From Candidatus Microgenomatus sp. (GTDB lineage: Bacteria > Patescibacteriota > Microgenomatia > UBA8517), in contig DYGT01000007.1 of NCBI GenBank assembly GCA_020724555.1, forward strand, positions 15,258 to 79,257: DNA of 64,000 bases. Direction: 5' to 3'. A program made the translations under genes and the position numbers. Positions 11,067-52,463 of the stretch are shown here, in pieces (position 1 is the first letter of the stretch; the number at the start of each line of letters is the position of its first letter). Under the pieces are notes generated by a model that was given only the letters and a program-made list of their open reading frames with translations, was not told where the DNA came from and made no database searches.

Positions 11067-12053
11067 ATGGAAAGAGTTGTAATTGTTGAAAAACTTAAAA
11101 AAAATTTCAGAGTTCGGGAAAAAGACGCTGGTCTGTTGGCCAGCTTTAAAAGTTTAGTAAGTTCCAGTTATAAGAATATTAACGCTTTAAAAAGTATTTC
11201 TTTTTCCTTAAATAAAGGTGAAATGGTAGGTTTTATTGGCCCAAATGGTGCCGGTAAAACCACGACGTTAAAAATCCTTTCAGGCATTCTTTATCCTACA
11301 TCTGGTTTTGTTCAGGTTATGGGGTTTACTCCGTGGGAACGTAAATACGACTATTTAAACCAATTAGGTCTTATTATGGGCCAAAAAAACCAGCTGTGGT
11401 GGGATTTGCCCGCAATAGACAGTTTGGAGTTAAACCGAGCAATTTACAATTTAAGTGATAAAAAATATAAAAAAAATCTTCAGGAACTTACCGAGATTTT
11501 GGATGTAGCTGATATTTTGCGCCGCCCTGTGCGACATCTTTCCTTGGGGCAGCGGATGCGGTTGGAATTGGTAGCCGGGTTGCTGCACAGCCCTCAAGTG
11601 GTTTTTCTTGATGAGCCAACGGTCGGGCTGGATGTTGTTGCTCAGGCAAAGATCCGAGAATTTATAAAAGAATATAATAAAAATCACGAAGCCACGGTTA
11701 TCTTAACCAGTCATAATATGAATGACCTTTTGGGGATAGTCGATCGGGTCATAATTATAGACAAGGGTAGTATATTTTTTGATGGAAAATTAGAAAGTCT
11801 GGTAAAAAAGTATGCGCTTAATAAAATTATTACGGCAACTTTAATTAACCCGGTGAGGCGAGAAGATCTGGAAAAAATCGGTAGTGTTGTTGAGTATGAA
11901 TTTCCCAAAGTGGTTTTGGCCGTTAAGCGCACTGTGGCCACGTTGGCTGCTTCTGAATTGCTTCAAAATTATCCGGTAAGCGATTTGAATATAGAAGAAG
12001 TGCCTGTTGAGCAAATAATCGTTCAGATTTTTCAGGCTAATGCAGAAAAATAA
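11067..12053 (+). CDS. ABC transporter ATP-binding protein (ABC-2 type)
   Basis: Walker A GPNGAGKTT, signature LSLGQRMR, Walker B VVFLDEPT. Confidence 0.85.
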   Translation: MERVVIVEKLKKNFRVREKDAGLLASFKSLVSSSYKNINALKSISFSLNKGEMVGFIGPNGAGKTTTLKILSGILYPTSGFVQVMGFTPWERKYDYLNQLGLIMGQKNQLWWDLPAIDSLELNRAIYNLSDKKYKKNLQELTEILDVADILRRPVRHLSLGQRMRLELVAGLLHSPQVVFLDEPTVGLDVVAQAKIREFIKEYNKNHEATVILTSHNMNDLLGIVDRVIIIDKGSIFFDGKLESLVKKYALNKIITATLINPVRREDLEKIGSVVEYEFPKVVLAVKRTVATLAASELLQNYPVSDLNIEEVPVEQIIVQIFQANAEK

Positions 12054-33354: not shown

Positions 33355-34041
33355 CTAATTTTTTTCTTCACTTTCTTTTAGGGTGTAGCCAAATCCACGG
33401 ATGGAATGAATTAACTTGTTTTTGTGCCCTTTGTCAATTTTTTTTCTGAGATAACCTATATATACGTCTACCACTCTGGATTGAATGTCTGGTGAATAGA
33501 GCCAGATGCGGTTTAAGATCATTTCGCGAGTTAAAACCTGATTTGAGTTGCGCATCAAATACTCTAAAAGTTTATATTCCTGAGGAGTTAGGGTAATATT
33601 TTTGTCTCCCCTTTTTACGCTAAAAGTTTTGCTATTTAACACGAGATCTCCTACAGTAATTACGTCGTCATCTTTCCCTTTATTTCTTAATCGTGCTTTA
33701 ACACGGGCTAAAAGTTCCTGCTCTTCAAAGGGCTTAGTAATGTAATCGTCTGCCCCCAAATTTAAGCCTTTAACTACATCGGTTGGAGTGTCTTTTGCGG
33801 TAAGCATAATAACAGCAGTTTGGGTGTATTCTTTGTTTATGGTGCGGCAAACAGACTCGCCGGAAATATCAGGAAGTTTAAGGTCTAATATAACCAGATC
33901 GGGTGGAGTTTTATCGAGTTTTTCAAGGGCCGTGGTACCATCTGGGGCGGTTGTTACACTGTAACCTTCTGAAGTGAGTAGTTCACGTAAATATTCACGG
34001 ATTCCACGGTCATCTTCGACTATTAGTATGGCTTGATTCAT
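33355..34041 (-). CDS. OmpR-family response regulator
   Basis: Receiver domain (DD...D...K) and winged-helix output. Confidence 0.85.
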   Translation of the reverse strand: MNQAILIVEDDRGIREYLRELLTSEGYSVTTAPDGTTALEKLDKTPPDLVILDLKLPDISGESVCRTINKEYTQTAVIMLTAKDTPTDVVKGLNLGADDYITKPFEEQELLARVKARLRNKGKDDDVITVGDLVLNSKTFSVKRGDKNITLTPQEYKLLEYLMRNSNQVLTREMILNRIWLYSPDIQSRVVDVYIGYLRKKIDKGHKNKLIHSIRGFGYTLKESEEKN

Positions 34042-36789: not shown

Positions 36790-36920
36790 TTATCCCTTTT
36801 GTGTTAAAATTGAGCCTGCAAGAGGAATATTGCCCGGTTGGTGTTCCGAGCTTCCGACCTAAAGTCGAGAACTCGTGAATGCTCGATTGCGAAGCAGATC
36901 GGCATAATGGTAGTAAAAAA

Positions 36921-37196
36921 ATGGCATTTTGTTATGTAATCAAATGTTCAGATAAAAGTTACTATGTAGGATCAACTAAAGATATTGTCGGTCGTTTTAA
37001 AAATCACAAGCTTGGTAAAGTAAGATATACAAAGTCCAGAAGTCCTTTGAAATTAATTTTTGTAAAAGAGTTTGAGACATATAGTGAGGCTTATAATTTC
37101 GAACAAAGAGTAAAATCATGGAAAAAGAGGAAATCTATAGAGAATATGCTTAATAAGTCTGATAATGTAGTATCCAAATATTGCCCGGTGGTGTAA
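36921..37196 (+). CDS. GIY-YIG nuclease-superfamily protein (UPF0213-like); its last 5 codons are encoded by a tRNA-Gln 5' fragment
   Basis: CYVIKCSDKSYYVGSTKDIVGRFKNH...YTKSR motif set; track ORF starts at 36879 but the conserved family start is MAFCYV at 36921. Confidence 0.7.
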   Translation: MAFCYVIKCSDKSYYVGSTKDIVGRFKNHKLGKVRYTKSRSPLKLIFVKEFETYSEAYNFEQRVKSWKKRKSIENMLNKSDNVVSKYCPVV

Positions 37197-37201
37197 TGGT
37201 A
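37177..37201 (+). repeat. 24-nt direct repeat: 4 nt upstream plus the first 20 nt of tRNA-Gln (second copy 37254-37278); a diverged third copy lies at 36826-36844
   Basis: atattgcccggtggtgtaatggta appears twice exactly; aatattgcccggttggtgt at 36826. Confidence 0.7.
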
Positions 37202-37204
37202 AGC

Positions 37205-37237
37205 AAAGCTTGGCCTTCGGCTAAAGCAAAGCTTGGC
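37205..37237 (+). repeat. 33-nt element aaagcttggccttcggctaaagcaaagcttggc, copy A (identical copy B at 52431-52463)
   Basis: Exact 33/33 match between the two loci; internal 13-nt direct repeat gcaaagcttggcc and a hairpin with a TTCG loop. Confidence 0.9.
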
Positions 37238-37258
37238 CATTACACCCTATTACTATAT

Positions 37259-37332
37259 TGCCCGGTGGTGTAATGGTAGCACGTCGCGCTCTGGACGCGG
37301 AAATTGGGGTTCAAATCCCTGCCGGGCAGCCA
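37259..37332 (+). tRNA. tRNA-Gln (anticodon CTG)
   Basis: Acceptor TGCCCGG/CCGGGCA with U1:A72 and G73, D-arm GTGT-AATGGTA-GCAC, anticodon loop CTCTGGA, T-loop TTCAAAT, CCA encoded. Confidence 0.8.
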
Positions 37333-37584
37333 AGACGGGCACCCCCTCAAGATCGAGGTCTCTATTCGGCTTGAGGAGGCTTGCCGAAACGCTCATTTTT
37401 CTTCAAATCATTCGAACCGTAAAAATAGCTTCAACGCTTCTATATTAAAGCTCTGGTTCGAGTAAAACCAAATCAGCTAGGGTAATTTGGAATAAACACA
37501 TTTATTTTAAAGAACTATTTGATTTCTCGGAAGTCAAGAAGATATAGATATTCATTATTTCCTCTTTAGTTGAATATCGCGTAA

Positions 37585-37610
37585 TACTGTTATACAATTG
37601 TATAACAGTA
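37585..37610. promoter_or_regulatory. 26-bp perfect palindrome TACTGTTATACAA|TTGTATAACAGTA overlapping the TTG start of the first island gene
   Basis: Exact dyad read from the sequence; spans the start codon at 37598. Confidence 0.4.
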
Positions 37611-39025
37611 TGTGCAGAAATATTCCGAATGTTGACTTTAAATCCACTTCCGATGGTTGGAGGGGAAAATTGGCTGACAATTTTACCTTTGCCAATGTTG
37701 AAGAAATCTCCAAAGCAATAGCTCAATTCCTCATCAAAGATAAAAAACAGAACAAAATAGTTGTCGGTTATGACACTCGATTTATGAGTAAAGAATTTGC
37801 TTATTTCATTGCAGCTGTGATGCAAGAGTGTGGAATTGATGTAAGTATTATTTCATCGCCATCTCCCACCCCTTACCTGACATTTGCCGTAAATGAATAC
37901 AGTTTTCCATTGGGAATAAATGTTACCGCTTCTCACAATCCACCGTATGATGACGGGATAAAAATTCGCATGGGCTACGGAGGCACACCTCCAAAGGATG
38001 TAATCGAGAAAATTGAGTCATATTTAAAAAATGGATATGAAGTAAAAGCAAAAATAAAAGGTAAAGTTAAGATAATCAATCCAAGAAAAAAATATGTAGC
38101 TCGAATTAGGAAATTTATAAATTTGGACTCTTTTGATAAAAGCGCTCCAAGAGTGTTAATAGATACAATGCACGGCACAACAAAAGGTTTCTTAGAAGAT
38201 ATTTTTGGCAATACAAAAGTAAAGATAGACCATCTTCATGAAGATTTTGATCCATATTTTGGAGGCATTAATCCCGAACCCAAATTTGAGTCAACAAGCG
38301 AATTACAACAAATTGTTAAGACTGGAGCTTACGATTTGGGGATAGCTCATGATGGAGACGGAGACCGTATAGTGGCTGTATTGCCCTCAGTCGGTTATTT
38401 GTCACCGCATGATGTAGCTAGCTTAATGGTTTTATATTTAGTAAAGCACAAACAGCTTCAAGGTACTGTTTTTGGGAGTTCTACTCTTGGTCGTCGCGTA
38501 GAAAGAATCTGTGAGAAACTTGGAATACAGTATGAAACAATGCCGGTTGGTTTCAAAAACGCAACGGACAAAATGCTAAAAGGAGAAATTTTGTTGGCGG
38601 CAGAAGAAAACGGAGGGCTTGGTTTCGGATTCTACTTACCGGAAAGGGATACCACTCTTGCAGCAGCGTTGCTACTAGAAGCTCAAGTATCCGTTGGAGT
38701 TAAAAAATTACTGGATGAGGTTGAAGAAATTGCTGGTAAATCTGGATTTTGTAGGTACAACTATTCACCCAAAGTAGATAGAAGGCGTTTGTTCAATAGT
38801 ATTTTAGAACATAGAAACGATTTTGATTTTAGAGAAATAGAGTCAATGAACGACTCTGACGGGATAAAGATTACTTATGATAACGGAGATTGGTTAAGTA
38901 TACGCTATTCTGGGACAGAAGAGATATTAAGAATTTATTGCGAATCAAATAGCCGACTAAAGGCAACAAAAATCAAAGACTTTGCAATTAAGCAGATCAA
39001 GTTACTAGAAAAGAAACAGAAATGA
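37598..39025 (+). CDS. Phosphohexomutase (phosphomannomutase/phosphoglucomutase family)
   Basis: GWRG N-terminus, active-site TASHNP, Mg-loop DGDGDR. Confidence 0.85.
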   Translation: MYNSMCRNIPNVDFKSTSDGWRGKLADNFTFANVEEISKAIAQFLIKDKKQNKIVVGYDTRFMSKEFAYFIAAVMQECGIDVSIISSPSPTPYLTFAVNEYSFPLGINVTASHNPPYDDGIKIRMGYGGTPPKDVIEKIESYLKNGYEVKAKIKGKVKIINPRKKYVARIRKFINLDSFDKSAPRVLIDTMHGTTKGFLEDIFGNTKVKIDHLHEDFDPYFGGINPEPKFESTSELQQIVKTGAYDLGIAHDGDGDRIVAVLPSVGYLSPHDVASLMVLYLVKHKQLQGTVFGSSTLGRRVERICEKLGIQYETMPVGFKNATDKMLKGEILLAAEENGGLGFGFYLPERDTTLAAALLLEAQVSVGVKKLLDEVEEIAGKSGFCRYNYSPKVDRRRLFNSILEHRNDFDFREIESMNDSDGIKITYDNGDWLSIRYSGTEEILRIYCESNSRLKATKIKDFAIKQIKLLEKKQK

Positions 39026-40173
39026 ATAATTACTGGAAATTTGCAACACCGAAATATTTAACTGCAGGAATGAGCTTAGTCTCAAATCTTACTGACTATA
39101 TTAACGATTTTGGGATAAAGAAGCCCTTTATTGTTATTGATCCCAAACTAAAAAAAGAAAGCAAAGCCATAAAAGCTTTAATAAAACAACTTGAATCTCT
39201 TGATATATTTATCTTTGAAGACTTCTCAACAAACCCAACAACTGATCAGGTGAGTAAATCAGTTAGTTTTTATCTTAAATTCAAACCTGATAGTGTAATT
39301 GCTATTGGTGGCGGTAGTGCAATCGATTTAGCAAAAGCTACTACTCTGGTCGCCCTGAATGGAGGAAACATTGAGGAATATTTGGCGGGGAGAAAAGGGA
39401 ACCGCGAATTTCCGCCCTTTATAGCAATTCCCTCCACATGCGGAACCGGCTCGGAAGCCAGTCCTTACGCAGTGATACTAGATCCCAAAACGAAAAAGAA
39501 AAGAGGGATTGAAGATTCCAATTTTTTACCAAAATTGGTTGTTCTTGATCCAAGACTATTGGATTCACTAGATACCACCATTCTTGCCGCGACAGCAATT
39601 GATGCTCTTGCACATATTCTTGAATCATTCATTTCTAAAAAGGCAAATGAAATTACACGAAGTTCAGCAAGAGGATTAATGATCGGATTAAAAAAATATA
39701 TTGAAGATGCTTCTGTGAAACGTGATTTAAATGCCGGCGCAGCAATGCTAAATGCCTCTTTTTCCTCTCGCCTCCTTTACCCTCGCACGGGCTTAACTAT
39801 TGCCCACGCTCTTTCTCATCCGTTGGGAGCATACACAAATATCCATCACGGCATGGCGGTTAGTTTCTTTTTACCAGTCTCGTTTAAAGTTAACCAGGAA
39901 TACTGTAAGGATTCGCTGAAAGAGGCAGTAAATCTGTTGGGATTTACTAACTTAGAACAATTTGATCAGTGGTTCAAAGACTTTTGTGATAAGGCCGGAA
40001 TCACAAGTTATCTGTGTGACTACTTGAAAGATGAAGATCTCCCTATTGAAATCTTAGCGAAAGACGCGCTTGAAAGTAGCAATATCCCTTCTAATCCTAA
40101 ACCAGTTAACAAGGAAGACTTAATTGGTGTTATTAATGATTCGCTAGCCTATTGGAGGATATATGGGAACTAA
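39022..40173 (+). CDS. Iron-containing alcohol dehydrogenase family oxidoreductase
   Basis: GGGSAIDLAKA NAD-binding motif and His-rich metal site (HALSHPLG, HHGMA). Confidence 0.8.
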   Translation: MNNYWKFATPKYLTAGMSLVSNLTDYINDFGIKKPFIVIDPKLKKESKAIKALIKQLESLDIFIFEDFSTNPTTDQVSKSVSFYLKFKPDSVIAIGGGSAIDLAKATTLVALNGGNIEEYLAGRKGNREFPPFIAIPSTCGTGSEASPYAVILDPKTKKKRGIEDSNFLPKLVVLDPRLLDSLDTTILAATAIDALAHILESFISKKANEITRSSARGLMIGLKKYIEDASVKRDLNAGAAMLNASFSSRLLYPRTGLTIAHALSHPLGAYTNIHHGMAVSFFLPVSFKVNQEYCKDSLKEAVNLLGFTNLEQFDQWFKDFCDKAGITSYLCDYLKDEDLPIEILAKDALESSNIPSNPKPVNKEDLIGVINDSLAYWRIYGN

Positions 40174-40999
40174 AGAAACTGGAGAAACTACTCCGATTGA
40201 AGACTTAATATTGTCTAGGTTTAATGAGGTTAATGTAGAAGCTATTAATATCATTCGACAATGGAGAGCTGGACAGAAGAGAGTTTTGGATAAAGTTAAT
40301 GCAAACGGGGCACATGATGTCGTTACAGATGTAGATATAACCATCGAATCCCTTACCAGACAAACATTTGCTGATACAATTCCTGTATTCGGTGAAGAGG
40401 GCTTTAATAATGACGCTTACGTTGTTGAAAAACCGCTATATATCGTTGTCGACCCTATAGATGGGACAAAAGAATTCGCAAAAGGCAGTAATGAATGGAG
40501 TATATCCCTTTGCGCTGTCCAGAATGGGGTACCAATTGTCGCATCTATTTTTATGCCAGATAAAGGAGAATGTTTTACTGCAATTAAAAACAAAGGGGTA
40601 AGGTTAAATGGTTTACCTTTAAAATCGCAGCAAGCCAATAATGGCAAAATTGCTGTAAGCCCGCGACAAATTAAAGACCCAGTGTTTGGTGAATCTATAA
40701 GAAGGACTGGATTGGTCGCTGCCGAAGTTTCTGCCTTAACACCGAAAATATGCGCAATACTTCGTGGAGAGGTGCAATCTGCGGTCTACTTTCCTCAGGA
40801 CGGGCAATCCGCTGCTTTATGGGACTATGCCGCAGGTGTATTGCTCGTCCAGGAGTTTGGTGGAAGGATAAGCTCGCTATGTGGTGCTGATCTTCCTTTC
40901 AGGGGAGCAGATATTATTCACAAAAAAGGATGGCTAGCTACTCGAGAAATTGATCATACGCAATTGTTAGCTTGTCTTAACAGCCTAGGTGAACTATAA
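40163..40999 (+). CDS. Inositol monophosphatase / FIG-family phosphatase
   Basis: DPIDGT and WDxAAG motifs. Confidence 0.8.
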   Translation: MGTKETGETTPIEDLILSRFNEVNVEAINIIRQWRAGQKRVLDKVNANGAHDVVTDVDITIESLTRQTFADTIPVFGEEGFNNDAYVVEKPLYIVVDPIDGTKEFAKGSNEWSISLCAVQNGVPIVASIFMPDKGECFTAIKNKGVRLNGLPLKSQQANNGKIAVSPRQIKDPVFGESIRRTGLVAAEVSALTPKICAILRGEVQSAVYFPQDGQSAALWDYAAGVLLVQEFGGRISSLCGADLPFRGADIIHKKGWLATREIDHTQLLACLNSLGEL

Positions 41000-41007
41000 T
41001 AACTCAA

Positions 41008-41541
41008 ATGACAAAAGTACAAAAATGGCAAGAGCTTTCGAGAGAAATAGCCTTTCAAAAATATAGTCGCAAAATTGAAAAAGTAATGTTTAAACTTCCC
41101 GATGGAAAAGAAACTGACTTTTATATCAAAAGAGAAGGTCCAGCAGCTGGAGTTCTGGCAATAACAAAAAATAAACAAGTAATTCTTGTAAAGCAATATC
41201 GACCTGGACCGGAAGAAGTTCTCCTTGAGCTGCCCGGCGGCTATGTTGATCCCAATGAAAAACCAGAAAAGACAATGGAGCGTGAATTACTTGAAGAAAC
41301 AGGATATAAAGGCAAGGTAAAACTTGTCACCACCTGTTTTGACGATGCCTACTCTACAATGAACAGATACTGCTTTGTCGCAACTGATTGTGAGAAAGTC
41401 AGTGAACCCCAGACAGGTGAGCATGAATTTGTAGAACTTGAACTCCTAACTCTAGAAGATTTCAGAAAGCTTTTGCGTAGCGGCAAGATGACCGATGTTG
41501 AGGTGGGATACCTCGGTCTTGATTTTCTAAACCTTCTGTAA
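41008..41541 (+). CDS. Nudix hydrolase (ADP-ribose pyrophosphatase-like)
   Basis: Nudix box GGYVDPNEKPEKTMERELLEETG. Confidence 0.8.
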   Translation: MTKVQKWQELSREIAFQKYSRKIEKVMFKLPDGKETDFYIKREGPAAGVLAITKNKQVILVKQYRPGPEEVLLELPGGYVDPNEKPEKTMERELLEETGYKGKVKLVTTCFDDAYSTMNRYCFVATDCEKVSEPQTGEHEFVELELLTLEDFRKLLRSGKMTDVEVGYLGLDFLNLL

Positions 41542-41566
41542 TAACAGAATAAATCGCTCCAATAAT

Positions 41567-42127
41567 ATGAAAATATTTTTTCATTCCTCAATCTTTGCCA
41601 AAGAGCATTATGAAGAAGCCTACCTTTTAATTGTTAAAATTTGCAAAGACCATGGTCATACAGTATTTGCTGATCATATGCTCAAACGCGATTACCATGA
41701 TACGGACAAGTATACTAGAGAACAGCACCAGCAGGATTTTCAAAGATTGACGAAACAAATCAAGGAATGTGATGTTGTTATTGTTGAAGGAACTGCCCCC
41801 AGCATTGGAACTGGCCATTACATGACTATTGCATTAGGTTATCTGAAGCCAGTTTTAGTGCTTCACCAAAATGAACCGCATGGAGTGTTGGTTGGTGACC
41901 CAAACAGGCTATTGTCCTTAAGGAGGTATTCAATGAATGACAAAAAAGGGTTGGAGAAGACAATCAAAGATTTTCTGAGAAACGCCGAAAAGAAAACTTT
42001 GAAAAATAGATTCAACTTAATGCTAGACGATGAGATGATAGACTTTCTTGAAAGATACTCCAAACAAGATAAGGCCAGTAAGGCTGATGTAATCAGGCGA
42101 TTAATACTGGAGAGAATGAACAAGTAA
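41567..42127 (+). CDS. Nucleoside 2-deoxyribosyltransferase-like domain fused to a C-terminal ribbon-helix-helix (CopG/Arc-like) domain
   Basis: KIFFHSSIF...CDVVIVEGTAPSIGTGHYMTIALGYLKPVLVL resembles the NDT-like Rossmannoid fold; C-terminal RFNLMLDDEMIDFLERY...ADVIRRLILERM has the RHH beta-alpha-alpha pattern. Confidence 0.45.
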   Translation: MKIFFHSSIFAKEHYEEAYLLIVKICKDHGHTVFADHMLKRDYHDTDKYTREQHQQDFQRLTKQIKECDVVIVEGTAPSIGTGHYMTIALGYLKPVLVLHQNEPHGVLVGDPNRLLSLRRYSMNDKKGLEKTIKDFLRNAEKKTLKNRFNLMLDDEMIDFLERYSKQDKASKADVIRRLILERMNK

Positions 42128-42129
42128 AA

Positions 42130-43023
42130 TTAATCTTTCCTCCCGAATTGCCTTAGTCTTTCTGGAGTACCAAGATCTGGAGCAGGCTGACCGATATCAA
42201 ATGTCCCCACTTGGACACCTTTATCTATAAGCCAAGGGATAAACTGTCTATACATGTCAACGACTCTAAGATCGCCACTTTCTTGTAAAAATTTTTGATA
42301 TGTAAGCAAATAAAATTCCCGATTGGCGATAGCCACACCCACGCTTGTACTTGGAATTAGTCCGTCAGAAAACAAGCTGATGTCTATATTGGGATTGTTT
42401 TCAAAGGTATGAACAACATTTCGGCTAAGGGGATCAACTAATATTCTCCCAGAGTTTTGGGCATTTTCTCCAGGAGATGTTGTTACAACCCAAGTAATAG
42501 ATGTATCTTGAGCCTTGTGGTTTTCAAGTATCTGAGGTAACAAACTGAAGGGGAATAATGTATCTGCTGGTACAATCGCTACAGTTGAGTATTCGGATAG
42601 ATTAAGAGCGTTAAATACAGCTCCCGCTGTCCCTAACGGTTGCTCTTCTCTGATAAATCTGACTGTGTTTTGATGATTGGCAGTGGTATGATCTTCTATA
42701 AGTGAACCTTGGGCTTCTGGGTCAGAACTAGTTAACAAAACAACATCTTTTATTCCTGTTGCAAAAATACCATATAGAGCATTGTCCAACATCGGTAATC
42801 TGCCATCACCTGAGTCTATTGGCACTAATGGCTTGGGCAAAGTTTGCAAGTCTGGGTCGTCAGACTTTTTTAGTCTAGAGCCCTTTCCTCCTGCCAAGAT
42901 AAGCACTCCTACTCCAATCTTTTGAGCCTCTAATTCAGGCGCAATTCGTTTTTCGCCAAATTCCAGAGATAGAGGTGTCTCAATTTCTTTATTTAACATG
43001 CTGACTTTGATTCCGTTATACAA
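42130..43023 (-). CDS. Sugar-phosphate nucleotidyltransferase (GlmU/RmlA-like NTP_transferase)
   Basis: LILAGGKGSRL nucleotide-binding motif. Confidence 0.8.
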   Translation of the reverse strand: MYNGIKVSMLNKEIETPLSLEFGEKRIAPELEAQKIGVGVLILAGGKGSRLKKSDDPDLQTLPKPLVPIDSGDGRLPMLDNALYGIFATGIKDVVLLTSSDPEAQGSLIEDHTTANHQNTVRFIREEQPLGTAGAVFNALNLSEYSTVAIVPADTLFPFSLLPQILENHKAQDTSITWVVTTSPGENAQNSGRILVDPLSRNVVHTFENNPNIDISLFSDGLIPSTSVGVAIANREFYLLTYQKFLQESGDLRVVDMYRQFIPWLIDKGVQVGTFDIGQPAPDLGTPERLRQFGRKD

Positions 43024-43159
43024 CTACATAACATTCTGATATTCTATAACAACTGCTTGAATTCAGCAATATTATGTGATTTTTAAGAGGTAAACGATAA
43101 AAAAATCTCAGGTAAAACATTCAGATAATTATCCGAAGCCGAAGTGGTACAATAGCTTC

Positions 43160-43537
43160 ATGTCAGATATCAAAGAACTCACTAAGAAAATTAACCAATG
43201 GGTAGCAGAGCGTGGATGGGAGAAGGCACAAAAACCCAAAGATTTAGCAATCTCGCTATCGCTTGAGGCAGCAGAAGTGCTTGAACACTTCCAGTGGAAG
43301 AATGAAAGAAAAGTTGCTAAGCATATTAAAGAAAACAAAGAGGAACTGGCAGATGAGCTTGCGGATGTGGCAATTTATCTCTTGAAACTTGCGGACAAAA
43401 CTAAAATTGATTTGAGAACTGCAGTTGAAAACAAATTGATTAAAGCTTCAAAGAAATATCCTGTAGAAGTGGTTAAGGGAAACTCGAAAGAGTATTACAA
43501 TTTGAAGAAGCAAGCTCGGGCCCAGCGACCATTATAA
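43160..43537 (+). CDS. MazG-like nucleotide pyrophosphohydrolase (small all-alpha type)
   Basis: EExxE...ELADV acidic motifs typical of MazG/HisE. Confidence 0.65.
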   Translation: MSDIKELTKKINQWVAERGWEKAQKPKDLAISLSLEAAEVLEHFQWKNERKVAKHIKENKEELADELADVAIYLLKLADKTKIDLRTAVENKLIKASKKYPVEVVKGNSKEYYNLKKQARAQRPL

Positions 43538-43550
43538 TTTCAACTATCCC

Positions 43551-43958
43551 TTATACCAGCTCAAAGACTTTCTTTTCATCTTCATGCTTCATAATTTCTT
43601 TTACTTTTTCAAGTCTCATCCAATCGTAACCAATACTTTCTTCATTCAAAGTAATAGGCGTATCTAAATCCCTGATTTTTAATGCTACGAAATGAATCTC
43701 TGTTAGTCTATGTTTGCCTTCAAATTCAATTTTGTAATTTAGGTTTTTAGTTTCTTCTAGATATCCAATTCCAAACTCTTCTGATACTTCTCTTTTTGCT
43801 GCATCTTCTAAATTTTCATTGGGTTCAATATCTCCAAAGATAATGGTCCACTCATCCTCATATCCGTTAAAAGGCTTGTTATGCCGAAGTAAGAATCTTC
43901 TGTTCCCTTCCGTGTCAATTGTCCAAACTATAACTGCAACTTTTTGGTGTTTACTCAT
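43551..43958 (-). CDS. Nudix hydrolase
   Basis: Nudix box GDIEPNENLEDAAKREVSEEFG. Confidence 0.75.
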   Translation of the reverse strand: MSKHQKVAVIVWTIDTEGNRRFLLRHNKPFNGYEDEWTIIFGDIEPNENLEDAAKREVSEEFGIGYLEETKNLNYKIEFEGKHRLTEIHFVALKIRDLDTPITLNEESIGYDWMRLEKVKEIMKHEDEKKVFELV

Positions 43959-44452
43959 GTTTCTAGGATTTTATTGTAAAACATATATTTTGCTCTCTGG
44001 TAGTCTATAAAACTCTTGCCATTAAATTTAAGTTTTAGCTCCTCATATTCTTTTAACAACTCTTTGTTTGATTTGAGTATGTCATAGACTTTAATTTGTC
44101 TGTCTGGTGGCTCAGTCAAATAGAGTTCTACTGGATATCCTTTCTCAGTAAATGACCATTCGATAAAAGTTTCATGAATATTTTTAGGTTTGCCAAAGAG
44201 TTTTTCTAAAATCGGTAAGTGTTCACCAAATTTACTAGATTCTGATAACACATAAATATCAATATCATTTTGTCCTGCAATTCCAAGCGCTGTTGCCCCC
44301 ATAAATAACACACGAGCATCAGGCAATTTGTCTTTGATTCTTTTGACTATTAAATCTCCAGTTTCTTTTGCTCTTGGATCAAATGCCGAAATGCTGACCT
44401 TCCTTGTCGGATCAATTTTGGCTAAATAATTTTCCTCATCTTGCGTTAACAT
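43955..44452 (-). CDS. GrpB-family nucleotidyltransferase-fold protein
   Basis: MGATALGIAGQNDIDIYV motif typical of GrpB (UPF0157). Confidence 0.6.
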   Translation of the reverse strand: MLTQDEENYLAKIDPTRKVSISAFDPRAKETGDLIVKRIKDKLPDARVLFMGATALGIAGQNDIDIYVLSESSKFGEHLPILEKLFGKPKNIHETFIEWSFTEKGYPVELYLTEPPDRQIKVYDILKSNKELLKEYEELKLKFNGKSFIDYQRAKYMFYNKILET

Positions 44453-44490
44453 GTCTTGATTATAGCCTGCCTTAGGTCAATAATACAGAA

Positions 44491-45246
44491 ATGTCTAAGT
44501 CAAAACTGCGTGAACCATTTTTAAGTGCTTACAAGAAAATAGAAGAACTTCAAAAATACGATCGCTATCTTGCGGCTTATATCTTCGGTTCAGTAGTACG
44601 AGGAGAGCAAGACAAAAATAGCGATCTTGATGTTATGGTTATCGTTGATGAGGATAATAATTGTAAAGAAATCAACCACCCAATTATTAATGGAATTAAG
44701 CTTGACATTACTTTTAGATCTCTGTCTCAAATAAAAGAAATTAACGACGATGTAGTCAAAAAGGGTGAAAGACTGCCCATGCTTGCTGAATCAATTATTG
44801 TCTTTGACAAAAATGGAGAGCTTAAGAAACTAAAACAAACATATTCCAATATGCGCCCAAAGGCAACAGAGCAAGATTTTCAACAAATCCACTTTATGCT
44901 TTACCACTCTGATAACAAGGCAAAGAGAAACCTGAAAAGTGACAAAGCGACAGCACTTCTTGCTCTATCTATAAACATAAATGACATCCTCAAATATCAT
45001 TACCATATTAATGGCAAGTGGTGGCTAAGCAATAAAAGATTACTTCCGGATTTAAGGCAATGGGATCCCAAAATGGCAAGATTAGTTGAGAGATTTGTAG
45101 GGACTTCCAATGTTGAGAAGAAATATCAAATTTGGAGCAAAATTCTGGATTATGTTGCCAACCCAATTGGTGGAAGAAAAGAAATCTCAGAGATTAATTG
45201 CAATTGTAAAACCTGTAAAAAAGACCTTACTCTTCTTACTTCTTAG
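44491..45246 (+). CDS. Pol-beta-superfamily nucleotidyltransferase (kanamycin/lincosamide NTase-like)
   Basis: GSVVRGEQDKNSDLDVMV motif (G[SG]x9-13DxD). Confidence 0.7.
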   Translation: MSKSKLREPFLSAYKKIEELQKYDRYLAAYIFGSVVRGEQDKNSDLDVMVIVDEDNNCKEINHPIINGIKLDITFRSLSQIKEINDDVVKKGERLPMLAESIIVFDKNGELKKLKQTYSNMRPKATEQDFQQIHFMLYHSDNKAKRNLKSDKATALLALSININDILKYHYHINGKWWLSNKRLLPDLRQWDPKMARLVERFVGTSNVEKKYQIWSKILDYVANPIGGRKEISEINCNCKTCKKDLTLLTS

Positions 45247-45272
45247 CTATCTATGCTAAACTAGCCTCATCT

Positions 45273-45734
45273 ATGGAAAATAAAATTAAAATCAGACTCA
45301 GATTAGTAATTATTAAGGAGGATAAGCTTCTGGCTTACTATGATTCAATGGATGATTATTATTTTTATATTGGGGGCAAGCTAGAGTTTAGGGAAACTAT
45401 TGAAGATGGTTGGAAGCGGGAGATTAAGGAGGAGTTGGGCAATGATGTTGAATTTACTTTTAAGAAAATACTCTATGTCAGAGATTTTATTCTTAAAGAG
45501 AAAAATGAACACAGTCTTGAGCTATTTATCTTGGGAGATATTAATAAGTTTATGGAAATAGACGAGCGCCCTGACTCAGAGTTTGACGGCAAGAAATGGC
45601 CAAAATGGCTAGATCTAAATAATTTACCAGATAATCTTTATCCTAAACCTTTGAGTAAAAAGCTTCTTACGGATTACAAAGCAGGATTCCCAAGAGAGGG
45701 AGAATATATAGGAAGGATGGATTCAAATGACTGA
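45273..45734 (+). CDS. Nudix-like hydrolase
   Basis: Nudix box GKLEFRETIEDGWKREIKEELG fits Gx5Ex7REUxEExGU. Confidence 0.6.
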   Translation: MENKIKIRLRLVIIKEDKLLAYYDSMDDYYFYIGGKLEFRETIEDGWKREIKEELGNDVEFTFKKILYVRDFILKEKNEHSLELFILGDINKFMEIDERPDSEFDGKKWPKWLDLNNLPDNLYPKPLSKKLLTDYKAGFPREGEYIGRMDSND

Positions 45735-46317
45735 AGAGAAAGAACTACTCACAATTTTATCGAAAGTAGAGTATGAGAAGGTACTTGCTCGTCTAGTTAA
45801 AAAGTTTGGAGATCCTGAAATTGTCAAAAGGCTTTCGCTTCAATCAACAGATTACAGATGGGCGGATGTAGATACAAGAATCAGGATTACCAATGGAAAA
45901 GCTGAGATTATTCAAAAAGTTGGTGATTGGAAGAAACAAAACCGCCAGGAAATCACAATTCCTCTGCCTTCTGACCCCAAAATAATTTTTGACATGTACA
46001 AGATTTTTATGAATGCGATGCGAGATGAAAAGGTACTAACTCCAATAATGCAATACGAGAATAAGTTATTTAAAACCAAAAATTTTGAAATCAAATTAAC
46101 TTACCAGTTTGGCAAAAAAGATGCATACAATTGTGAAATTGAAGTTTTTGACCATGCCCTTGAGCCAGATGATTTGGCTAAAAAGTATAATATTCCAATT
46201 CACTTACCAGAACAAACCCAAGATTTTTGGAAAAATTGGAATGAAATTGTTAATTTATCAGCTACAGAATTATCGGATGATGAGTTGTTAAAAATAATTT
46301 CTAAATATATTAACTAA
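45727..46317 (+). CDS. Hypothetical protein (possible CYTH-like fold)
   Basis: Weak resemblance (IRITNG...EIEVF) to the triphosphate-tunnel family; low confidence. Confidence 0.25.
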   Translation: MTEEKELLTILSKVEYEKVLARLVKKFGDPEIVKRLSLQSTDYRWADVDTRIRITNGKAEIIQKVGDWKKQNRQEITIPLPSDPKIIFDMYKIFMNAMRDEKVLTPIMQYENKLFKTKNFEIKLTYQFGKKDAYNCEIEVFDHALEPDDLAKKYNIPIHLPEQTQDFWKNWNEIVNLSATELSDDELLKIISKYIN

Positions 46318-46318
46318 T

Positions 46319-46753
46319 ATGACTGAAAAACAGCACGATTTTGTTTTTGAGACTAAGTATTGGGAAGTATATCTCAACCCTGATCAGTATTACTTGGGTC
46401 GTTGTGTTGTTTTTGCAAAAAGAGATGTAGGAGCAATGAGTGAGTTAACTCGCGAAGAATGGCTTGATTTTGCAGAACTATCTCGAAAGATTGAAAAAGG
46501 GTTTAAACAAAAGTTTGGCGCAACAATGTTTAATTGGACTTGTCTTATGAATAATGCTTATCAAGAAGAAAATCCCCACCCTTGGGTGCATTGGCATATG
46601 AGACCAAGATATAAAAATCCAGTTGAATTTGCGGGCCAGAAATTTGAAGACAAAGAATTTGGGCATCATTATGCTAGGCAAACCGAACAAACAGTCTCGC
46701 CTGAAGTTTTTACTAAAATTGTTGAAGAAATAGAGAGCTTTTTAGAAAAATAA
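46319..46753 (+). CDS. HIT-like (histidine triad) nucleotide hydrolase/transferase
   Basis: His triad HPWVHWHMRP (HxHxHxx). Confidence 0.6.
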   Translation: MTEKQHDFVFETKYWEVYLNPDQYYLGRCVVFAKRDVGAMSELTREEWLDFAELSRKIEKGFKQKFGATMFNWTCLMNNAYQEENPHPWVHWHMRPRYKNPVEFAGQKFEDKEFGHHYARQTEQTVSPEVFTKIVEEIESFLEK

Positions 46754-46755
46754 CT

Positions 46756-47334
46756 ATGTACACAGAATTTGAAGCAACATTCACAGATATCAGTAAAGAT
46801 GAAGCAAGAGAAAAACTTAAAAAAGCTGGGGCAAAGTTAGTTCGTGAGGAGTATCTTCAAAAGCGTTGTGTTTTTAATCTTCCAAAAAGTCATGAAATAA
46901 AAGGAGGATGGCTAAGAGTGAGAGATGAAGGAGACAAAATCACAATGAGCCTCAAAATTGTTGATGGAGATAAAATTGAAAATCAAAAAGAAACACAACT
47001 TGTAATTGATAATTTTGAAAATGCAGTAAATCTTTTTGAAAGCATTGGATGTATCAAAAAAGCATATCAAGAAAGCAAACGAGAACTTTGGAAGTTAAAG
47101 GATGTCGAAATAACAATTGATGAATTGCCTTTCCTTGAGCCGTTTGTTGAAATTGAAGGCAAATCTGAAGAGGAAGTAAAAGAAGTAGCTCAGAAACTTG
47201 GACTTGATTATTCAAAAGCAAAATTCTGTGCTGTTGACACACTTTACTCTGAAAAATATGGCATTTCTGAAGACAGAATAAACAACCACACCCCAGAAAT
47301 ATTATTTGAATCAGAAAATCCATTTATTAAATGA
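46756..47334 (+). CDS. CYTH-domain protein (triphosphate tunnel metalloenzyme)
   Basis: N-terminal EFEATF (ExExK-like), WLRVRDEG, C-terminal ExE (FVEIEGK). Confidence 0.55.
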   Translation: MYTEFEATFTDISKDEAREKLKKAGAKLVREEYLQKRCVFNLPKSHEIKGGWLRVRDEGDKITMSLKIVDGDKIENQKETQLVIDNFENAVNLFESIGCIKKAYQESKRELWKLKDVEITIDELPFLEPFVEIEGKSEEEVKEVAQKLGLDYSKAKFCAVDTLYSEKYGISEDRINNHTPEILFESENPFIK

Positions 47335-48338
47335 AAACTCTAAAAATTGCAGTTGGAACTACATCCGAACAGAAGATTGGATATCTAAAAGAAGTTTTGG
47401 ATGAAATTGGGATAGGTGCTGAAATTGTCCCAACGGATGTCAAAAGTGGAGTTTCCGATCAGCCAATCACTGAAGAAGAAACTCAAACGGGCTCACTTAA
47501 CCGTGCTAAGGCTGCATTTGAAAGTGTTGAAGATGTCGATTTTGGGATTGGGATAGAAGTCGGATATCACAAAAATAAGAATGAGGATTTCGAGATGTTT
47601 TGCTGCACTTCAATCTTTGGCAAAGGTGAGGCTATAGCGAGTTGTTTTTCGACTAGGTTCTTGCTTCCTGATTTTCACCAACAGATATTAAAGGAAAATA
47701 AATATCTTGGAGAATATGTGCGTAAATACAAAGAAGAGGTTGACGAGCCAGTTATAAACTATACAAGAGAATTGGTCCGTGGCAGAAAACCGTTAATTGT
47801 TGAAGCAACAAGAAATGTCTTACTTCAATTTCTAGAACTACATGCAACAGTTAGCCATTTACTAAAGTCTGATAGCTTAGGTTATAGAGATAAATCACTT
47901 GGAGTAATAATAGACAAAGACAAAAATTTTCTCCTAGTCCAACTACATAGCTATGGAGAAAATGACTGGAATTTTCCTGGTGGCGGAATCGAAGACGGAG
48001 AAACTCCTGAAGAAGCCTTATTAAGAGAATTATCTGAAGAGCTTGGAAGTAAAAAATTCAAAATCCTTGCAAAAAGTGAAAAACAAATAGAGTATGATTG
48101 GCCTGATTTCATTATCGTCAAAGATATCAAAAAAAGAAACGGCAAAACTTTTAGAGGTCAAAGACAGCATATATTCTTGGTTGAATTTAGCGGAGGCAAA
48201 GATGAGATTAATCCTGACCCAGGTGAGATACGACATACTAAATGGGTGAAAAAAGATGAGTTAAAAGACCACCTCAATTTCCCCAGCCAGAAGGAAATAT
48301 TTGATGAGGTGATTAAGGAGTTGCTTACTGAATTATGA
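47331..48338 (+). CDS. Fusion protein: N-terminal YjjX/Ham1-like non-canonical NTP pyrophosphatase, C-terminal Nudix domain
   Basis: N-terminal KIAVGTTSEQKIGYLKEV...SGVSDQP (NTPase_I-T/Maf-Ham1 type); C-terminal Nudix box PGGGIEDGETPEEALLRELSEELG. Confidence 0.6.
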   Translation: MKTLKIAVGTTSEQKIGYLKEVLDEIGIGAEIVPTDVKSGVSDQPITEEETQTGSLNRAKAAFESVEDVDFGIGIEVGYHKNKNEDFEMFCCTSIFGKGEAIASCFSTRFLLPDFHQQILKENKYLGEYVRKYKEEVDEPVINYTRELVRGRKPLIVEATRNVLLQFLELHATVSHLLKSDSLGYRDKSLGVIIDKDKNFLLVQLHSYGENDWNFPGGGIEDGETPEEALLRELSEELGSKKFKILAKSEKQIEYDWPDFIIVKDIKKRNGKTFRGQRQHIFLVEFSGGKDEINPDPGEIRHTKWVKKDELKDHLNFPSQKEIFDEVIKELLTEL

Positions 48339-48377
48339 ATATTTATTTAAAAGGCAATTATAAATCATTCATCAGAC

Positions 48378-49082
48378 TTGATGTTTTCAAAACTAAAAAG
48401 AAAACAAATAAAGTGTATCTTAATGTGCATGGGTTATATGCCATGTCTGGAGACAGAGGTTCTAAGTCAAAGTTTTTTGGGAAACAGGACACTGGAGAAA
48501 AATATAGCCAATGTAGTCCAGTTTTCCTCCTCTCGTGACTGGAATATCTTCCCTCCAGATGGGACTTATTCAAAGCAACAAGAGTCATTCAAGGGTAAAA
48601 CTTTTGTGCAAGAAGCTCAAGATTTGAGAGATGCAATTGATTTGATTCTTGACCAAAGTAAATATCTTTTTGGTATCGAGAAAGGAAAGCTGAGATTTTA
48701 TATAGTAGCTAATTCAATCGGTGGAACCGTTACTACAACTTTAAAAGATAAGTTTAAATATATTGATAAAATCGTGTTGGCTGGATTTGGAACCAGACCG
48801 TCAGATTCCACAAAACCAATTCTTTCAACCTGTCCAACTGAAAAAGAAATTCTTGATTCGGCTGCAAAATTTAACGGAGAACTACTTTTTCTCCAAGGAA
48901 GCAAGGATGACGTGGTGCCCATTGAAGCGCAGGATAAATTGTTTGCAAGTTATAAGCATGCCAAAAAAGAAAAAGTGATTGTTGAAGGAGCAAATCACAA
49001 CTTCTCAAAGTTAAACGGAAAAGACAAAAGATTGGTTCAGAAATTGTATGTTGATTTCATTCTTAAATTTTTGGTCAAATGA
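48378..49082 (+). CDS. Alpha/beta-fold hydrolase
   Basis: Nucleophile elbow ANSIGG (GxSxG); catalytic Asp/His region (DDVVP, ANHNF). Confidence 0.55.
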   Translation: MMFSKLKRKQIKCILMCMGYMPCLETEVLSQSFLGNRTLEKNIANVVQFSSSRDWNIFPPDGTYSKQQESFKGKTFVQEAQDLRDAIDLILDQSKYLFGIEKGKLRFYIVANSIGGTVTTTLKDKFKYIDKIVLAGFGTRPSDSTKPILSTCPTEKEILDSAAKFNGELLFLQGSKDDVVPIEAQDKLFASYKHAKKEKVIVEGANHNFSKLNGKDKRLVQKLYVDFILKFLVK

Positions 49083-49597
49083 AATATCATCAAGACACAT
49101 ATTTATACAAAGGCACTAAGGTTACAAATACCTGGATTAAAACTGACAATCTTGAGAATTACTCTCCAATAACTCAGGTCTACGGAATCGTTTTTAACGA
49201 TAAAAATGAAGTCATAATTTGTCGTGAATCTAATAGCGGTAGCTGGATAATTCCAGGAGGACACCCAGAGGAAGGTGAATCTATTGAGCAAACACTAAAG
49301 CGAGAGCTTCAAGAAGAAGTGGATGTAGAGATCGAAGATATCAAACCATTAGGTGTCCAAAAGGTTACGTTTCCGGATGATGTTAATTCTGATAAAGCCA
49401 TATATCAAGTCAGATGTATTGCAAAACTCAAAAAACTGAATTCTCAAACTCCTGATCCTGCAAATGGGAATACTTGGGAGAGAAAATTTATTCCTGCTTC
49501 TGAAATTACAAACTATGTTAAGTGGGGAAAAACCGGAGAGGTAATGTTTAAGGATGCTGTTGAAGTTTATTCTTCTGGCTTGAAACCAATGATTTGA
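49079..49597 (+). CDS. Nudix hydrolase
   Basis: Nudix box GGHPEEGESIEQTLKRELQEEVDVE. Confidence 0.75.
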   Translation: MKYHQDTYLYKGTKVTNTWIKTDNLENYSPITQVYGIVFNDKNEVIICRESNSGSWIIPGGHPEEGESIEQTLKRELQEEVDVEIEDIKPLGVQKVTFPDDVNSDKAIYQVRCIAKLKKLNSQTPDPANGNTWERKFIPASEITNYVKWGKTGEVMFKDAVEVYSSGLKPMI

Positions 49598-51934: not shown

Positions 51935-51954
51935 CCTGCCTGCCGGCAGGCAGG
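51935..51954. repeat. 20-bp perfect GC-rich palindrome CCTGCCTGCC|GGCAGGCAGG
   Basis: Exact dyad; 83 bp beyond the IS right end and ~140 bp upstream of blaI. Confidence 0.6.
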
Positions 51955-52430: not shown

Positions 52431-52463
52431 AAAGCTTGGCCTTCGGCTAAAGCAAAGCTTGGC
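52431..52463 (+). repeat. 33-nt element, copy B (identical to 37205-37237), in the blaI/M56 intergenic spacer
   Basis: Exact 33/33 match. Confidence 0.9.

Follow-up and report, generated by a model that had tools for sequence, protein, structure and literature searches.

Proteins of the ribbon-helix-helix (RHH) superfamily act on operators with two subsites about one helical turn apart, for which a dimer-of-dimers stoichiometry is expected. The present analysis deals with a palindrome in a stretch of 64,000 nucleotides from Candidatus Microgenomatus sp. (contig DYGT01000007.1, positions 15,258 to 79,257; the whole stretch is called the window), which heads a five-gene operon on the + strand (37610-42127). 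The palindrome is likely to be an operator, bound by a one-component repressor from the same gene cluster: the DNPH1-like/RHH protein of 186 aa whose gene is at 41567-42127. This reading is supported because the core of the palindrome is conserved, specific to promoter sites and co-inherited with the gene of the proposed regulator. An operator-repressor pair formed by the palindrome and the RHH fusion had been suggested in an earlier note on this DNA; comparative genomics favours the pairing, with the start codon and the extent of the element corrected.

With Arc, Mnt, CopG and MetJ the locus shares a small predicted beta-alpha-alpha domain with alternating polar residues in the strand and a putative promoter-overlapping operator of two subsites (here, by inspection, 11 bp apart from centre to centre). 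Unlike in those proteins, the predicted RHH domain is C-terminal and fused to a 140-residue domain of nucleotide-binding type, and the sequence similarity is marginal. NikR recognises the palindromic operator GTATGA-N16-TCATAC, with half-sites 16 bp apart, and consists of an N-terminal RHH domain and an ACT-like nickel-binding sensor. The window protein would resemble it in its one-component design, in which an RHH domain is joined to an oligomerising sensor, two dimers sit on the two halves of the dyad and the affinity is set by a ligand; it differs in the C-terminal position of the RHH domain, in the DNPH1-like sensor and in the distance between the conserved blocks (~11-12 bp). In PutA and NrtR, too, the fold of a metabolic enzyme is coupled to a DNA-binding domain that regulates adjacent genes. 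PutA keeps its enzyme activity, which the window protein is predicted to have lost, and NrtR is alike in possessing a nucleotide-hydrolase fold that has apparently lost catalysis and turned into a sensor. NrtR joins a Nudix domain to a winged helix-turn-helix (wHTH) and has a box of the GT-N7-AC type, whereas the window protein joins a DNPH1-like domain to a predicted RHH domain and would use a TGTTAT-N8-ATAACA box. Functionally, and as judged from sequence, the locus would be an RHH repressor-operator pair of the Arc, CopG and NikR kind, whose enzyme-derived sensor design parallels that of NikR, PutA and NrtR.

To our knowledge, the way in which Patescibacteria, the Candidate Phyla Radiation (CPR), regulate transcription is very poorly known, and no regulator-operator pair from this group appeared in the literature searched.

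The palindrome and its conserved core

The earlier note had described an exact 13+13 dyad at 37585-37610 (TACTGTTATACAATTGTATAACAGTA) and had called it the longest perfect palindrome of the window. Both statements hold, and the perfection extends by one base per side to 14+14 = 28 bp (37584-37611; left arm ATACTGTTATACAA, right arm TTGTATAACAGTAT). Third-order Markov simulation of the window, run 300 times, never gave arms of 14 nt and reached 13 nt once, so that the palindrome is unlikely to be there by chance. The runner-up in the 64 kb, with 10-nt arms, is a GC-rich perfect palindrome of 20 bp (CCTGCCTGCCGGCAGGCAGG, 51935-51954) that lies between genes of an AT-rich genome; it is not followed by a T-run and matches nothing in Rfam.

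The dyad had also been described as spanning a TTG start codon at 37598. This TTG is no more than the earliest start-like codon in the frame; the real start is an in-frame ATG at 37610-37612, the A and T of which close the palindrome. The same ATG was chosen by gene callers on contigs identical to the window (471 aa).

For the comparative test, 33 relatives of the 186-aa protein were aligned (48-98% identity to it), which come from Patescibacteria bins (Roizmanbacteria, Woesebacteria and CPR3) and so make a CPR source of the window very probable. Together with 4 contigs identical to the window, 33 loci were drawn from genome and metagenome collections (L numbers below) and mapped by tblastn. 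At site 1, the core TGTTATACAATTGTATAACA stands with at most two mismatches before the orthologous mutase gene in 8/8 independent lineages, that is, in all those including the start of this gene (window, L008/24, L009, L010/20, L012, L013/14, L015/16 and L022), and in each of them the core ends 0-3 nt ahead of the mutase ATG. The proteins of the eight lineages are only 61-73% identical, with 52-84% identity of their module proteins to those of the window, and the DNA around them cannot be aligned. Site 2 is a copy of the dyad just upstream of the convergent NTP-transferase gene and was found in six lineages (window, L005, L012, L015, L021 and L033). The most distant relatives (44-50% identity; L026, L027 and L029-L032) have the regulator gene at the head of a different operon, in the order regulator, Nudix, radical SAM, with no other genes of the window module; here the dyad (site 3) is located ~75 bp upstream of the regulator ATG and 36 nt before a conserved extended -10 (TGGTATAAT). 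The radical SAM gene that follows dyad, regulator and Nudix gene in L029 (9927-12004) and L031 (9926-11994) is viperin-like: PADLOC pVip is matched over nearly the whole model (E=1e-31 to 3e-31), and NCBIfam viperin_w_prok scores 103-105 bits (cut-off 180), the next family reaching 48-60 bits.

The dyad accompanies the fusion gene through two unrelated operon contexts in 13 independent lineages. Its recurrence upstream of another gene of the island and in related genomes agrees with the expectation of the earlier note, for which absence of the dyad from orthologous loci would have counted against an operator; among the eight orthologous lineages no such absence was seen. A position weight matrix (PWM) of the site, applied at a threshold of at least 12 bits to 297 kb of dereplicated loci, the whole 64-kb window included, found only the promoter sites described above, and simulated sequence gave ~0.6 hits at this threshold, with a maximum of 17.5 bits. 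The 18-mer core also occurs in 9 contigs of IMG/VR (~5-6 independent sequences), none of which encodes module proteins, and these matches were set aside as background.

Across 19 non-redundant sites, T3, T4, T6, A15, T16, A17 and A18 of the core are invariant and positions 1, 2, 5, 7-9, 19 and 20 nearly so, with a variable centre (positions 9-14) and four unconserved flanking bases per side. Since the core is conserved and the four bases flanking it are not, the functional unit would be the 20-bp core, and the 28-bp perfection of the window dyad appears to be a lineage-specific extension. The core can be read as TGT-TAT-ACA, AT, TGT-ATA-ACA, in other words as two 9-bp pseudo-palindromes with centres 11 bp apart, a spacing that two two-fold-symmetric RHH dimers would need in order to lie on one face of the helix, as in Arc and CopG. 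The dimer-of-dimers binding proposed in the earlier note is consistent with such a geometry of two subsites, as far as sequence and general knowledge of RHH proteins can tell.

The putative second operator of the window (O2), 14 nt upstream of the NTP-transferase ATG, matches the first (O1) at 16/20 bases. A possible auxiliary half-site begins 28 nt past the start of O2 on the promoter-distal side and has a counterpart in one other lineage only (L015, at +30); half-sites of this kind near full sites, present in 2/19 regions against at most 0.6 expected, are too weak to be claimed. A LexA (SOS) box, CTGT-N8-ACAG, was also considered and rejected: CTGT and ACAG of the window are spaced by 14 bp, not 8, the C before TGT is shared by the window and L009 alone, and lineages differ in the base that follows ACA. 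A further long palindrome was noticed in L049 (7520-7550), 31 bp with perfect 15-nt arms and one central base (TCAATATCACATACCGGGTATGTGATATTGA), inside or near an alpha/beta-hydrolase gene on a CPR contig of complete-genome size.

The candidate regulator

The dyad-bearing loci all share a single orthologous gene, the one encoding the 186-aa protein. It is the sole constant partner of the dyad because the two operon types have non-orthologous Nudix genes, with only the Nudix box in common, and no other gene flanking the dyad in the window, including that of the OmpR-type regulator at 33355-34041, is conserved beside it in other lineages. The candidate regulators encoded upstream (OmpR-type response regulator, histidine kinase, DUF4258 and GIY-YIG) and downstream (MazG, GrpB and nucleotidyltransferase (NTase) genes) were discarded as unconserved next to the dyad, and the Nudix protein was rejected as the binder, being non-orthologous between operon types and too short for a wHTH of the NrtR type. 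No further paralogues of the regulator were found in the window. An exhaustive profile search (E<=1e-10) collected 674 clusters at 50% identity, mostly full-length proteins of ~190 aa. The fusion has no NCBIfam model, its sole name being the UniRef 'CopG domain-containing protein', and the literature searched held nothing relevant on a DNPH1-like/RHH fusion.

From a structural perspective, residues 1 to ~140 match PF05014 (30.2 bits against a cut-off of 28.8), and the closest solved structures are those of the 2'-deoxynucleoside 5'-phosphate N-hydrolase DNPH1/Rcl (profile E=5e-7; Foldseek E=2e-7, TM-score ~0.8 on the target). Human DNPH1 has Glu104 as its essential nucleophile and Tyr24 and Asp80 as further catalytic residues, the 5'-phosphate is held by Ser98, Gly100 and the main chain of Ile29-Arg30-Gly31, and the active site spans the dimer interface (PMC10483697). 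The numbering of the human sequence used here agrees at every residue named in that paper. The window protein shares with DNPH1/Rcl the fold and the phosphate loops S-I-x-G (S8-I9-x-G11) and P-S-x-G-x-G, and keeps Ser98, Gly100 and Asp80 as Ser79, Gly81 and Asp57. Unlike the enzyme, it has lost the nucleophile, Glu104 being replaced by Tyr85, as well as Tyr24, replaced by Phe4, and it carries the extra C-terminal RHH domain. The retained residues (Ser79, Gly81, S8-I9-x-G11 and Asp57) are invariant or nearly so in the 33-sequence clade, of which no member has Glu at the nucleophile position. In the wider family this position is occupied by E, Q, L, M, F, I or Y, and some distant subfamilies keep Glu. 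As the nucleophile is replaced, the window protein is predicted not to be an active DNPH1 and should not be filed as one; its residue pattern is what one would expect if an enzyme fold had been taken over for ligand sensing. What the earlier note had called an NDT-like domain thus looks like a disabled, ligand-binding DNPH1 fold.

The C-terminal 40 residues (~146-186, ...KNRFNLMLDDEMIDFLERYSKQDKASKADVIRRLILERMNK) show an RHH pattern, and the Pfam profile RHH_1 aligns to residues 148-183 with positions 1-36 of its 39. RHH_1 matches 22/33 relatives (best E=5.1e-7), precomputed PF01402 hits fall on P0008, P0011 and P0025, and the best PDB matches of the domain profile, though weak, are AvtR and the SeqA N-domain, both RHH folds. 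In the AlphaFold model of the full-length protein (predicted local distance difference test, pLDDT, 86), residues 143-154 are extended and are followed by helices at 155-168 and 172-185 (pLDDT 85-90 there). The monomer model of the isolated domain has a helix where the strand is expected, as can happen without a partner chain. When the isolated domain was submitted to Foldseek, 18/26 hits were RHH proteins (VapB, AvtR, CopG, ORF56, Arc and CopA-SO), with a root-mean-square deviation of 0.7-2.1 A over ~33 residues. Family-level evidence, rather than that of the single sequence, thus argues for the RHH assignment made in the earlier note. The beta-strand K-N-R-F-N-L-M, in which polar and hydrophobic residues alternate, is invariant across the clade. 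Phe149 and Leu151 would point toward the hydrophobic core and Arg148, Asn150 and Met152 toward the DNA, and the invariance of this predicted DNA-facing strand fits an equally invariant operator.

Tandem arrays of 3-4 DNPH1-like/RHH paralogues were observed in other CPR genomes (L047 4001-6333 and L048 1063-3362), adjoining genes for dCMP deaminase, NDK and a YfbR-like dNMP nucleotidase; some of the array paralogues keep the DNPH1 nucleophile motif G-Y-E-L.

Position of the dyad at predicted promoters

The dyad overlaps promoter-like hexamers in every lineage. In the window, the -10 of a sigma-70-like match falls on its centre and a second -10-like hexamer, TATAAC, is found at 37601-37606, in the right arm. 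Four lineages (L008, L009, L010 and L022) have a consensus TTGAC(A/T) exactly 3 nt before the core and 16 nt from the right-arm TATAAC, which is often preceded by TGG in the same four. On any of these readings either the -10 region or the transcription start would fall within the dyad, as is classical for repressors that act by occlusion. The earlier note had likened the placement of the dyad to that of a repressor operator, and its symmetry, its overlap with promoter and start, its conservation at orthologous loci and its co-occurrence with the regulator gene all agree with this.

A dyad-free element, TTGTyT-17-TATAAT, is located 5-7 nt before the Nudix ATG in 9/11 distinct lineages, and it would express the Nudix gene and the regulator independently of O1. 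Short distances of this kind are frequent in the window, where TATAAT-like hexamers stand 5-7 nt before the start codon of 13 genes, against ~1.2 expected, and a Shine-Dalgarno-like (SD-like) motif was found in 11/68 genes (examples of the pattern are at 11067, 25432, 33355(-), 36128, 41008, 43160, 43955(-) and 62334(-)). These boxes suggest a frequent use of leaderless mRNAs by this CPR bacterium; nothing relevant on leaderless promoters in Patescibacteria was found in the literature searched.

The proposed operator weighed against other explanations

The analysis shows the dyad, how conserved and specific it is, where it lies, its co-inheritance with the regulator gene, and the domains and active-site substitutions of the protein. 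That the protein binds, with what stoichiometry, that it represses and does not activate, and what the ligand is and in which direction it acts are what we infer for this pair. Several results weigh against the operator reading. On the window protein RHH_1 scores 14.7 bits (E=0.031), below the gathering score of 20.5, and the Foldseek hits of the isolated C-terminal domain have E>1, as expected for 33 aligned residues. Of the hexamers within the dyad, TATAAC is 1-4 nt and TACAAT 9-12 nt away from the ATG, as against the 5-7 nt usual in this genome, and reading the transcription start off the -10 spacing was given up, no in-dyad hexamer being at the usual distance. Site 2 is absent from L024, L009, L013, L022, L028 and L034, about half of the lineages. 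The distant Glu-retaining subfamily (P0105-like, ~30% identity; L047-L050) has no TGTTAT...ATAACA dyad upstream, and no palindrome of any kind is shared by the upstream regions of these four loci. Lastly, the sequence inspected spans 10-64 kb around each site.

This last point, together with the sub-threshold RHH score of the window protein, leaves room for an operator of another DNA-binding protein, encoded elsewhere in the genome and only incidentally linked to the fusion, which we consider quite unlikely. The dyad follows the fusion gene through both operon contexts and all 13 lineages, and no other gene, that of the OmpR-type regulator included, is conserved near it. A global regulator would moreover predict further sites, of which the 297 kb contain none, and the adjacent Nudix protein is too short for an NrtR-type wHTH and differs in origin between the contexts. 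That the conserved sequence is a plain core promoter, AT-rich and -10-like, with a symmetry that is accidental or serves bidirectional use, is very improbable. The dyad does hold the -10-like TACAAT and TATAAC and overlaps promoter predictions, but both of its arms are conserved symmetrically and GTTAT matches no promoter element; other promoters in these genomes lack the dyad, among them the conserved internal TATAAT box ahead of the Nudix gene, and in the regulator-first operons it is separate from the extended -10 and upstream of it.

The palindrome could instead act in the mRNA, where a 5' hairpin abutting or including the AUG would limit the initiation of translation. The earlier note had raised this alternative, and the prediction of RNA folding makes it unlikely as a general function. 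A stable hairpin that pairs the A and U of the AUG is predicted for the window (28-mer -13.2 kcal/mol, z = -5.8), but orthologous sites reach only -1.8 to -7.2 kcal/mol, so that stem stability is not conserved. It is the sequence itself that is conserved, not pairing alone, loop and stem bases being nearly invariant, and asymmetric pairs have no bias for the sense strand (G.U 9 vs A.C 7). The fixed distance of 0-3 nt between dyad and ATG at site 1 would suit a hairpin, and with SD-like motifs so rare a structure beside the AUG could matter; at site 3, however, the dyads are 36 nt before the extended -10 and ~75 nt from the ATG. The dyad could be transcribed in L013 and L015, which have a TACAAT just upstream of the core, whereas in the four lineages with a TTGAC(A/T) -35 at 3 nt before the core the left arm would stay untranscribed. 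A scan of the 250-nt leader region against Rfam returned the tRNA only and no known RNA element.

Proposed mechanism and significance

In the operator model, the RHH domains would pair into dimers, and two dimers, probably joined via dimerisation of the DNPH1-like domains, would place their beta-ribbons (Arg148, Asn150 and Met152) in consecutive major grooves, at the blocks (T)GTTAT and ATAAC(A). As the dyad overlies the -10 region and stops 0-3 nt short of the ATG, a protein bound at O1 would block RNA polymerase at the mutase operon, and one bound at O2 would do the same at the convergent nucleotidyltransferase gene. The N-terminal domain is the proposed sensor, since the residues that hold a nucleoside 5'-monophosphate are kept and the catalytic Glu is gone; it would sense a nucleotide-like ligand and change the affinity for DNA, and a nucleoside-5'-monophosphate-like ligand at the dimer interface could plausibly reposition the RHH pairs. 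A nucleotide-type effector is also tentatively considered plausible because the module sits in a stretch (41-50 kb) crowded with nucleotide hydrolases. Regulator and Nudix protein would be made from their own dyad-free internal promoter.

A broader proposal is possible, though on balance doubtful: the fusion would represent a large unstudied family of one-component regulators of Patescibacteria, in which an N-hydrolase fold has repeatedly lost its nucleophile and senses a non-canonical or modified nucleoside monophosphate, and in which the 20-bp dyad switches on nucleotide-processing modules, a sugar-phosphate and nucleotidyl-transfer module in the window and a Nudix and viperin-like antiviral pair in relatives. 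If true, this would tie the surveillance of nucleotide pools to gene control in organisms that must scavenge nucleotides. What the locus offers is a concrete candidate pair, made up of the 186-aa protein and a 20-bp site whose limits and invariant bases are known, in a candidate regulator family of hundreds of members, with nucleoside 5'-monophosphate-like compounds as a plausible ligand class in view of the retained DNPH1 phosphate contacts and the loss of the nucleophile. That the same putative operator and regulator head the viperin-like operon in relatives hints at a role of nucleotide sensing in the control of nucleotide chemistry of two kinds, salvage-type and antiviral, in these reduced genomes. 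Should the protein not bind, the dyad would still be among the most strongly conserved non-coding elements of these loci, and another factor would be needed.

The gene module and its surroundings

The features of the module and of its control region are collected in Table 1. A defence-library scan of the module returned nothing beyond generic Nudix and NTase matches.

Table 1. Features of the dyad-headed module and its control region, in window coordinates.
Feature	Position	Strand	Remark
Sigma-70-like match TTGAAT-17-TACAAT, -10 at dyad centre	37570-37598	+	promoter motif match
Perfect 28-bp palindrome (14+14)	37584-37611	.	outer 4+4 bp specific to window lineage
Operator O1 (putative), 20-bp core, left half TGTTATACAA, right half TTGTATAACA	37588-37607	.	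conservation, PWM 31.4 bits
Phosphohexomutase-family protein (PGM/PMM domains I-IV), first operon gene	37610-39025	+	start ATG 37610
Iron-containing alcohol dehydrogenase family gene	39022-40173	+	
Inositol monophosphatase / CysQ-like phosphatase gene	40163-40999	+	
Internal promoter-like element TTGTCT-17-TATAAT, dyad-free	40972-41000	+	7 nt before Nudix ATG
Nudix hydrolase gene, 177 aa, without DNA-binding domain	41008-41541	+	
186-aa DNPH1-like/RHH protein, proposed repressor	41567-42127	+	domain, alignment and model evidence
Convergent sugar-phosphate nucleotidyltransferase gene (NTP_transferase)	42130-42999	-	ATG 42999-42997
Operator O2 (putative), degenerate dyad: + strand CGTTATACAACTACATAACA, gene strand TGTTATGTAGTTGTATAACG	43014-43033	.	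PWM 24.6 bits
Possible auxiliary half-site TTCTATAACA (9/10)	43042-43051	.	weak evidence

Genes for nucleotide hydrolases are unusually dense at 41008-49597. This stretch includes Nudix genes at 41008, 43551(-), 45273, 47331 and 49079, that at 47331 being fused to an NTPase_I-T/ITPase-like domain, as well as genes for MazG-like (43160), HIT (46319), CYTH (46756) and GrpB (43955(-)) proteins and for a Pol-beta-type NTase (44491).

The module is incomplete in L011 (5472-6137) and L006 (9070-10535), which lack the mutase gene, the alcohol dehydrogenase gene, the 5' part of the phosphatase gene and O1, with a breakpoint corresponding to window ~40640. A chimeric open reading frame (ORF) spans the junction in L011; in L006 the RHH region of the regulator is frameshifted and no dyad occurs within 20 kb. 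Among the neighbours of the viperin-like operon of L029 and L031 are a type IV secretion system (T4SS) pilin gene and a reverse transcriptase gene.

Upstream of the palindrome, the GIY-YIG ORF at 36879-37196 is absent from the 99.9%-identical contig L002, and ahead of the intact tRNA-Gln (37259-37332) there is a second copy of its 5' part (37181-37201); the region 36879-37258 looks like the insertion of a mobile endonuclease beside a tRNA. An exact 18-bp repeat (GCTAAAGCAAAGCTTGGC) is found at 37220-37237 and 52446-52463, intergenic in both places and with extended similarity around it, and the copy at ~37.2 kb is itself partly tandem, containing AGCAAAGCTTGGCC twice.

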